A DNA stretch of 64,000 nt, taken from the NCBI RefSeq assembly GCF_013167455.1, contig NZ_CP038328.1, one strand, 5' to 3'. The stretch comes from Escherichia coli O157:H7. GTDB taxonomy: Bacteria > Pseudomonadota > Gammaproteobacteria > Enterobacterales > Enterobacteriaceae. A program made the position numbers. Shown here piece by piece: positions 61,871 to 64,000 of the stretch (position 1 is the stretch's first letter; every line of letters begins with the position of its first letter).

Positions 61871-64000
61871 TAGTTTGTACACCGTCCGATACTCAATCGC
61901 CAAAAAGAAAAAAGCCAGCAGATAATCACTGCTGGCGTGGCGATTAACACCAATACTCAGTCACACATGATGTCCGCAAATCAGTAGTCAGAATGACTCC
62001 CCTCCCACTGCATCAGTTCTTCAAGCATGGTTAATCGTTGTGGGACGCTTAACCAACGCAACCAGCACAACTTCGCTGTCGCGGTAAAATAGTGCTGATA
62101 AAACTGACGAATGGGGCACCTCCTTGCTTCATCGTTAGGAATTATTGACTTAATATAGGGAAAATAAAATTGCTGTCTTTTGCGCAGGAGTTCCCCTTTT
62201 ATGCCATCTGCTCGTCTGCAACAACAGTTCATCCGCCTGTGGCAATGCTGCGAGGGTAAATCGCAGGACACAACGCTCAACGAACTGGCAGCGTTATTGA
62301 GCTGCTCGCGTCGTCATATGCGTACCCTGCTCAACACCATGCAGGATCGCGGCTGGCTGACGTGGGAAGCGGAAGTCGGGCGTGGTAAACGCTCGCGTCT
62401 GACATTCCTCTATACCGGGCTGGCGCTTCAGCAACAGCGGGCGGAAGACCTGCTGGAGCAGGACCGTATCGACCAACTAGTGCAGTTAGTTGGCGACAAA
62501 GCGACTGTGAGGCAAATGCTGGTTTCTCATCTGGGCCGCAGCTTCCGCCAGGGGCGGCACATCCTGCGCGTGCTCTACTATCGTCCGTTGCGTAATCTGC
62601 TACCTGGCAGCGCATTGCGCCGTTCCGAAACCCATATCGCCCGGCAAATCTTCAGTTCGCTAACGCGCATAAATGAGGAAAATGGGGAACTGGAAGCAGA
62701 CATCGCCCACCACTGGCAGCAAATATCACCGCTTCACTGGCGTTTCTTTTTGCGTCCAGGAGTCCATTTTCATCATGGTCGTGAACTGGAAATGGACGAC
62801 GTGATCGCCTCTTTAAAACGAATCAATACGCTGCCGCTCTATTCGCATATTGCTGACATTGTGTCGCCGACGCCCTGGACGCTGGATATCCACCTCACGC
62901 AGCCGGATCGCTGGTTGCCGTTACTGCTGGGACAAGTTCCGGCGATGATCCTGCCGCGCGAATGGGAAACCCTCAGTAACTTTGCCAGCCATCCCATCGG
63001 CACCGGTCCGTATGCGGTGATTCGCAACAGCACCAATCAACTGAAAATTCAGGCATTCGATGACTTCTTCGGTTACCGGGCATTAATCGATGAAGTTAAC
63101 GTCTGGGTTCTGCCGGAAATTGCCGACGAGCCAGCCGGAGGGCTGATGCTAAAAGGTCCACAGGGCGAGGAAAAAGAGATTGAAAGCCGCCTGGAGGAAG
63201 GTTGCTACTATTTACTGTTCGATAGCCGCACCCATCGCGGGGCGAATCAGCAAGTCAGGGACTGGGTAAGCTATGTGCTTTCTCCAACTAATCTGGTCTA
63301 TTTCGCTGAGGAACAGTACCAGCAACTGTGGTTCCCGGCTTATGGACTGCTCCCCCGTTGGCATCATGCCCGCACCATAACGAGCGAAAAACCGGCTGGT
63401 CTGGAAAGCCTCACCCTGACCTTTTATCAGGATCACAGTGAGCATCGGGTGATTGCCGGGATCATGCAGCAGATTCTGGCAAGCCACCAGGTCACACTGG
63501 AAATCAAAGAGATCAGCTACGATCAGTGGCATGAAGGAGAGATCGAGAGCGATATCTGGCTTAACAGCGCCAACTTTACGCTGCCGCTGGATTTTTCGCT
63601 GTTCGCGCACCTGTGCGAGGTACCGCTGCTCCAACACTGTATTCCAATCGACTGGCAAGTCGACGCCGCCCGCTGGCGCAATGGCGAAATGAACCTGGCG
63701 AACTGGTGCCAACAACTGGTCGCCAGCAAAGCAATGGTGCCACTTATCCACCACTGGCTGATCATTCAGGGACAACGCAGTATGCGCGGCCTGCGCATGA
63801 ACACCCTCGGCTGGTTTGATTTTAAATCAGCGTGGTTTGCGCCGCCGGATCCAGAGTAGCTTGCGCCTTTTGGCGGTCATGAGCGCATTTTTTATATTCA
63901 GACGGAATGATAAAATACATTACTTTTATATTTTCTCTGTTTTATGCATCGTCTGATTAGCGTCGCAAATAAGATTAAAGAAGGGGCATTCCAGCCCCTC

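Follow-up and report, generated by a model that had tools for sequence, protein, structure and literature searches.

The sgrT gene within the SgrS small RNA of the Escherichia coli O55:H7/O157:H7 lineage starts with ATT instead of ATG and is probably a functional null or a severe hypomorph, in an RNA that works on by base pairing. Sequence comparison indicates that ATT arose by one G-to-T step, which became fixed on the stem leading to the O55:H7/O157:H7 clone. The allele itself is already published (2009, 2014, 2017, 2026), and the first-pass annotation of this DNA, which had mentioned ATT alleles in some pathogenic E. coli lineages, was thus a correct rediscovery of what is reported for O157:H7 (PMC2760817, PMC4021124, PMC5331693, PMC13293527). 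Our additions are population counts, the polarity of both the start-codon and the Shine-Dalgarno (SD) changes, and the dating to the O55:H7/O157:H7 stem.

In 2009, Horler and Vanderpool described a point mutation that had eliminated the start codon of sgrT in every O157:H7 genome available at that time (PMC2760817). According to a 2014 review, the mutation "presumably" abrogates SgrT production (PMC4021124), and a 2026 paper states that the start-codon change prevents SgrT expression (PMC13293527). For strain EDL933, Neuhaus et al. (2017) described both the ATG-to-ATT change and a AAGGGGGT-to-AAGGAGGT change, and they hypothesized that SgrT is made from ATT, based on a ribosome coverage value (RCV) of 1.55 for sgrS (PMC5331693). 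The literature is thus contradictory, and neither position is based on direct experiment; a literature search found no direct measurement of SgrT production or PtsG inhibition for the ATT allele. The first-pass annotation raised the same two possibilities, that SgrT is absent or that it is initiated weakly at ATT, and sequence analysis is not decisive between them.

The SgrS gene and its sgrT reading frame

The window analyzed is a stretch of 64,000 nucleotides from E. coli O157:H7 (NZ_CP038328.1). The O55:H7/O157:H7 allele of the SgrS gene occupies 227 nt on its minus strand (61907..62133). In a covariance-model search, this sequence matched Rfam family RF00534 over model positions 1-232 of 232 with a score of 228.1 bits (gathering score, 37), and a 321-nt segment spanning sgrS has 100% identity with genomes of E. 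coli O157:H7. As befits SgrS, the gene is divergent from sgrR, which codes for the transcriptional activator of sgrS (62201..63859, plus strand; identified as an ORF and by the RefSeq annotation of the identical region), and it adjoins the leu operon, with the end of leuD (61268-61873, plus strand) just past the SgrS terminator. The +1 nucleotide is at 62133, and the minus-strand RNA starts with GATGAAGCAAGGAGGTGCCCCATTCGTCAG. The base-pairing (seed) region, GTGTGACTGAGTATTGGTGT, corresponds to SgrS nt 168-187 (61947..61966, minus strand); this 20-mer was found unchanged in the genomes of 48 enterobacterial species in a scan of one genome per species. The intrinsic terminator (61907..61936, minus strand) consists of an 8-bp stem, GCCAGCAG/CTGCTGGC, at 61936-61914, followed by TTTTTTC. 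The control region between the divergent sgrR and sgrS genes (62134..62200) is the same as in ATG-bearing strains, the alignment showing 0 differences from A37, PE164 and 33F4, and 1 from K-12.

The sgrT reading frame (61981..62112, minus strand) comprises 43 codons followed by TGA (61983-61981), and its translation from ATT is IRQFYQHYFTATAKLCWLRWLSVPQRLTMLEELMQWEGSHSDY. With Met as the first residue, the frame matched the Pfam SgrT family, PF15894, with E = 2.8e-13, and an alignment with 17 homologues showed that it contains the conserved SgrT core, RQFY..YF.AT...WL....QRL..L.ELMQW. No NCBIfam match was obtained for this frame or for a K-12 control sequence. The translation and the Pfam match bear out the earlier description of a 43-codon frame intact to its stop, with exact coordinates, and the first codon is indeed ATT (62110..62112, minus strand), the derived base being the T at 62110. 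All homologues examined have ATG at this position. The ATT codon is preceded by the SD sequence AAGGAGGT (62118..62125, minus strand; core AGGAGG, 62124-62119), an 8-nt match to the anti-SD sequence, and by 5 nt (GCCCC). A K-12-lineage genome reads AAGGGGGTGCCCCATG in this region (ATG, AGGGGG); thus, K-12 differs both at the start codon, which is ATG and not ATT, and at the upstream element, as stated in the first-pass annotation.

Upstream of the ATT codon, the transcript contains no in-frame ATG, GTG or TTG. The downstream in-frame candidates, TTG at codons 15 and 18 and ATG at codons 29 and 34, were rejected as starts because their use would delete the conserved N-terminal core; codon 29, the next in-frame ATG, lies past most of that core. 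A 27-codon ORF (62132-62049, minus strand; MKQGGAPFVSFISTILPRQRSCAGCVG) starts out of frame with sgrT, at the ATG of SgrS nt 2-4. This ORF is probably incidental, because its ATG is part of GATGAAG, a 5′ end common to the SgrS of enteric bacteria and paired with a 3′ CAUC in the Rfam structure.

In RefSeq (PGAP), the sgrT CDS starts on ATT in both O157:H7 (L001:2589-2720) and O55:H7 (L006:7173-7304), and it is annotated as intact, with neither a note nor a pseudogene flag. Protein accession WP_001248768.1 is shared by O157:H7, O55:H7 and ATG-bearing strains such as A37, PE164 and 33F4, so that comparisons at the protein level hide the ATT/ATG polymorphism.

The sgrS/sgrT locus of O157:H7 strains Sakai and EDL933 (PMC2760817, PMC5331693) has the same ATT, the same AAGGAGGT and the same SgrS sequence, with no difference from the window. 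The K-12 SgrS/SgrT system (PF15894, RF00534) resembles that of the window in the gene as such, the 43-codon frame, the seed and the divergent sgrR. In contrast, K-12 has ATG, and its AAGGGGGT forms a GGGGGTGCCCC hairpin that sequesters the ribosome-binding site (RBS). The two SgrT frames also differ in their last seven codons (DDRNSES in K-12, EGSHSDY in the window), as do the sequences from the sgrT stop codon to the terminator loop, and setA separates sgrS from leuD in K-12 but not in the window.

Distribution and polarity of the two changes

To count the allele combinations among complete E. coli genomes, we used 90-nt queries with the SD and start sites in the middle, covering all 5,399 genomes that have the sgrS locus. 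One mismatch corresponds to 98.9% identity, and the band of at least 99% therefore counts exact matches only. AGGAGG combined with ATT was found in 311 genomes, a number reproduced with a 60-nt query, and AGGAGG combined with ATG in 3,298. The K-12-type combination of AGGGGG and ATG occurs in 1,412 genomes, and 378, obtained by subtraction, have other variants of the 90-nt region. AGGAGG is thus present by exact match in 3,609 of the 5,399 genomes. The occurrence of identical 90-nt and 60-nt stretches in 311 complete genomes excludes that ATT is a sequencing error or arose by chance. The lineage survey that the first-pass annotation had called for showed ATT to be confined to the O55:H7/O157:H7 lineage. 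A separate origin of ATT in K-12-type sequences was rejected, as AGGGGG combined with ATT occurs in 0 genomes.

For the polarity of the changes, SgrS 5′ ends were read among the 48 loci retrieved with the 20-nt SgrS seed from one genome per species. E. albertii, E. whittamii and three more Escherichia species-level genomes all have AAGGAGGTG and ATG, and Klebsiella, Raoultella, Enterobacter, Pluralibacter and Superficieibacter have GAGGAGG and ATG. The exception is one Klebsiella metagenome-assembled genome with GGAGAT, whose start is still ATG; ATG was found in every outgroup species whose SgrS 5′ end was recovered. The presence of AGGAGG in other Escherichia species and in several other enteric genera shows that it is ancestral and that AGGGGG of K-12 is a derived minority form. 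The first-pass annotation had singled out the "canonical AGGAGG" behind which ATT is found. The element is there (62124-62119), but as the ancestral majority form it is no special trait of the ATT allele. Being older than ATT, the SD was not strengthened in answer to a weak start codon. A compensatory evolution of AGGAGG to rescue ATT is ruled out since AGGAGG with ATG is the majority combination (3,298 genomes) and is also found in other species and genera, and since nine ATG genomes otherwise match the window over 281 nt.

The K-12 sequence AAGGGGGT (L003:2597-2604) is thus a derived minority allele (1,412/5,399 by exact match, 26%). Of 15 E. coli strains, only 3 were reported to have the stem-loop that sequesters the sgrT RBS in K-12 (Horler and Vanderpool 2009, PMC2760817), and the GGGGGTGCCCC hairpin suppresses SgrT translation (PMC2760806). 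Because the K-12 RBS is derived, in the minority and known to suppress SgrT translation, the conclusions on low SgrT drawn from K-12 may not hold generally, and SgrT may be more important in typical E. coli than K-12 work implies.

Dating of the ATT allele

O55:H7 strain CB9615 has ATT, and the closest ATG-bearing relative examined is the O145 strain RM12522. In O145 RM12522-C8, codon 12 of sgrT is changed from GCG to GAG (L004:488-490), which replaces Ala with Glu in the region of the conserved YF.AT motif and accounts for its separate protein accession, WP_001248774.1.

A chimeric query made of the window's 281 nt with ATG restored was found exactly in nine genomes, from pig, fish, chicken, fresh water and calves. 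Two of the nine show approximately 2% divergence from the window in sgrR and leuCD. This divergence, present in both flanks, rules out that these two sharers of the ATG haplotype are revertants and places them in other lineages. From 62323 to 61781, they are distinguished from the window by the ATT site alone. A 90-nt marker haplotype at the sgrS-leuD junction was found exactly in 317 genomes, which approximates the 311 ATT genomes plus a few sharers of the ATG haplotype; reversion is therefore not seen. By these counts, ATT appears to be fixed in the lineage, with no sign of reversion. Site 62323 was also considered as a lineage marker and discarded as non-specific (1,859 genomes).

The sgrS locus at 61781-62323 is far more conserved than its flanks. 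PE164 and 33F4 diverge from the window by 1.8-2.3% over sgrR and leuCD, and in the 542 nt of the locus they show 1 difference, the ATT site, where approximately 10-12 would be expected. Strong constraint or a shared recombined segment could account for this low divergence.

Base-pairing function of SgrS

The seed 20-mer (61966-61947) is the same as in K-12. In EHEC strain TUV93-0, deletion of sgrS caused sensitivity to alpha-methylglucoside that was complemented by the sgrS allele, and SgrS was the transcript most strongly induced by D-serine (PMC13293527). The unchanged seed, terminator and control region, together with the complementation in TUV93-0, argue that the RNA function is intact; on all evidence available, the ATT allele thus retains the base-pairing function of SgrS. 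As O157:H7 is devoid of setA, its glucose-phosphate stress response probably relies solely on SgrS base pairing. A presumed base-pairing-only SgrS has a parallel in Yersinia, whose SgrS homologues are without sgrT (PMC4021124, PMC2760817). Unlike them, the window keeps the whole sgrT frame and its RBS, with one base changed.

Consequences for SgrT production

These observations are best explained as follows. In the common ancestor of O55:H7 and O157:H7, a G-to-T substitution altered the third base of the sgrT start, from ATG to ATT, on the ancestral AGGAGG background, and it has remained fixed. With the promoter region, seed and terminator unchanged, SgrR still induces SgrS, which still relieves glucose-phosphate stress through pairing with the ptsG and manXYZ mRNAs. 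Initiation at AUU, opposed by IF3, is expected to yield approximately 1-2% of AUG output, which would cut SgrT to a few percent or less of the level of the ATG allele, too low to matter, and the sgrT frame would be intact only because the lineage is too young for its decay.

IF3 discriminates against AUU, and SgrT acts by binding PtsG, an abundant transporter. In reporter assays, initiation at AUU amounted to 1-2% of that at AUG (bioRxiv 10.1101/063800). Given weak initiation and an abundant target, SgrT is most likely too scarce to matter, and we infer that its levels are functionally negligible. In line with this, the Vanderpool laboratory and later authors have regarded SgrT as not made (PMC2760817, PMC4021124, PMC13293527), and SgrT is barely detectable in K-12, even from ATG (PMC2760806). 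Against a complete null, translation of the AGGAGG allele may be efficient when its start is ATG, and 1-2% of such a level would be more than zero.

The integrity of the frame was also considered as a sign of selection. The window differs from O55:H7 at 7 of 14,717 aligned bases (0.048%), from which approximately 0.06 substitutions are expected in the 132-nt sgrT frame since the O55:H7/O157:H7 split. An untranslated frame would therefore look equally intact, and the comparison has insufficient power. The Ka/Ks of 0.15 given for sgrT by Neuhaus et al. was obtained from 10 substitutions relative to a distant homologue (PMC5331693) and therefore reflects selection before ATT arose.

RNA folding was predicted for the different alleles. 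The 5′ fragments gave energies of -12.4 kcal/mol for K-12 versus -9.1 to -9.8 kcal/mol for the AGGAGG alleles, and the short 5′ fragments folded no better than shuffled sequence (z -1.3 to -1.65). When the full-length RNA was folded, every allele had a buried start codon. In these predictions, the G-to-U change removes a G-C pair from a long-range helix over the start codon, making it weaker by approximately 2.5 kcal/mol, and the energy required to open nt 8-37 drops to 20.4 kcal/mol from 23.0 kcal/mol, an effect that would favor some SgrT synthesis.

A weak, AUU-initiated synthesis of SgrT, low but physiologically useful and aided by the perfect SD, would make SgrS a tuned-down dual-function RNA, with no loss of function. 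We consider this unlikely. It would fit the position of the AUU codon, 5 nt downstream of a perfect AAGGAGGU and free of the K-12 RBS hairpin, but AGGAGG is older than ATT and was not selected as compensation. The genes infC and pcnB provide a precedent, as both have genuine AUU starts in E. coli (bioRxiv 10.1101/063800), located, like that of the window, behind an SD at normal spacing. ATT is the start of an intact sgrT CDS in RefSeq, but that call is automated. It has neither reverted nor decayed further in 311 genomes; the lack of frame decay is, however, expected by chance, and the Ka/Ks value predates ATT, being derived from distant homologues and 10 substitutions.

The ribosome profiling of EDL933, in which the ATT-start hypothesis is explicit (RCV 1.55 for sgrS; PMC5331693), would also favor some translation. 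However, the RCV is neither frame- nor start-specific, and these data place 52 of the 115 annotated ncRNAs above the "translated" threshold, with RyhB at 4.49. The value of 1.55 is therefore weak evidence. A low SgrT yield even from ATG in K-12 (PMC2760806) also argues against a useful yield from AUU.

If SgrT were made in this manner, its output may depend on IF3 levels, as for infC. The AUU start of infC is an established part of IF3 autoregulation. By comparison, the AUU of the window does not extend beyond a single clonal lineage of recent origin, and all relatives start with AUG: ATG is found in O145, in A37, in the nine near-identical haplotypes and in all outgroup species, so that the start is not a conserved non-canonical one. 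Such a distribution is the pattern of a recent mutation. For initiation at the AUU of the window, the available evidence is a non-specific ribosome coverage value (PMC5331693). A stronger version, in which sgrT of O55:H7/O157:H7 is a natural AUU-initiated gene that yields a small, IF3-sensitive amount of SgrT through the ancestral SD, with the functions of SgrS rebalanced, appears somewhat less likely still; if true, it would represent the third chromosomal AUU start in E. coli.

The preferred explanation, loss or near loss of SgrT, has one further competitor, namely selection of the G-to-U change for what it does to the RNA (folding, stability, handling by Hfq or RNase E, or a new partner), with SgrT loss as a by-product. 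This is very improbable: the substitution does lie in the predicted long-range helix, eases the predicted opening of nt 8-37, and is the sole change in 542 nt otherwise invariant between lineages with approximately 2% flank divergence, but the RNA-level effect is small and a thermodynamic prediction only, the change is of the one kind that does away with a canonical start, no role in base pairing is known for the 5′ part of SgrS, and selection is unnecessary to explain why one SNP became fixed in a lineage that is clonal and bottlenecked.

Other features of the locus and window

In K-12, sgrS is followed by the sugar efflux gene setA (L003:2822-4000), which is absent from the corresponding position of the window (61874-61906), where leuD ends 34 nt past SgrS. 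The setA gene is present in 3,241 of 5,426 genomes. The K-12-type SgrS 3′ end (90-95% identity band) was found in the same number of genomes, 3,241, and the O157-type 3′ end (SgrT C terminus EGSHSDY), which is like those of E. albertii and E. whittamii, in the remaining 2,158. The matching counts indicate two old sgrS 3′-end haplotypes, one of them tied to setA. The U-run of the window (61907-61913, minus strand) consists of six U broken by a C (UUUUUUCUUUUU), versus eight U in K-12, and a UUUUUUCUUUUU-type run is common to all genomes with the O157-type 3′ end. The length of the U-tail of SgrS is important for Hfq binding.

The type III secretion effector gene espY2 is intact upstream of sgrR in O55:H7 (L006:4628-5197). 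In O157:H7 PV15-279 (L001:1-613), it is a truncated, frameshifted pseudogene beside an IS3 element of the IS1203 family. K-12 and A37 have neither espY2 nor an IS1203-family element upstream of sgrR, and in the O157:H7 sequence analyzed here this region falls past the window end at 64000.

Additional Rfam matches in the window include PssrA (35410-35499, minus strand; 105.5 bits), described as a plasmid-encoded Shigella small RNA and chromosomal here, as well as tp2 (17826-17939, plus strand), naRNA4 (29214-29291, minus strand), STnc40 (29694-29763, minus strand) and the leucine operon leader (56999-57148, plus strand).
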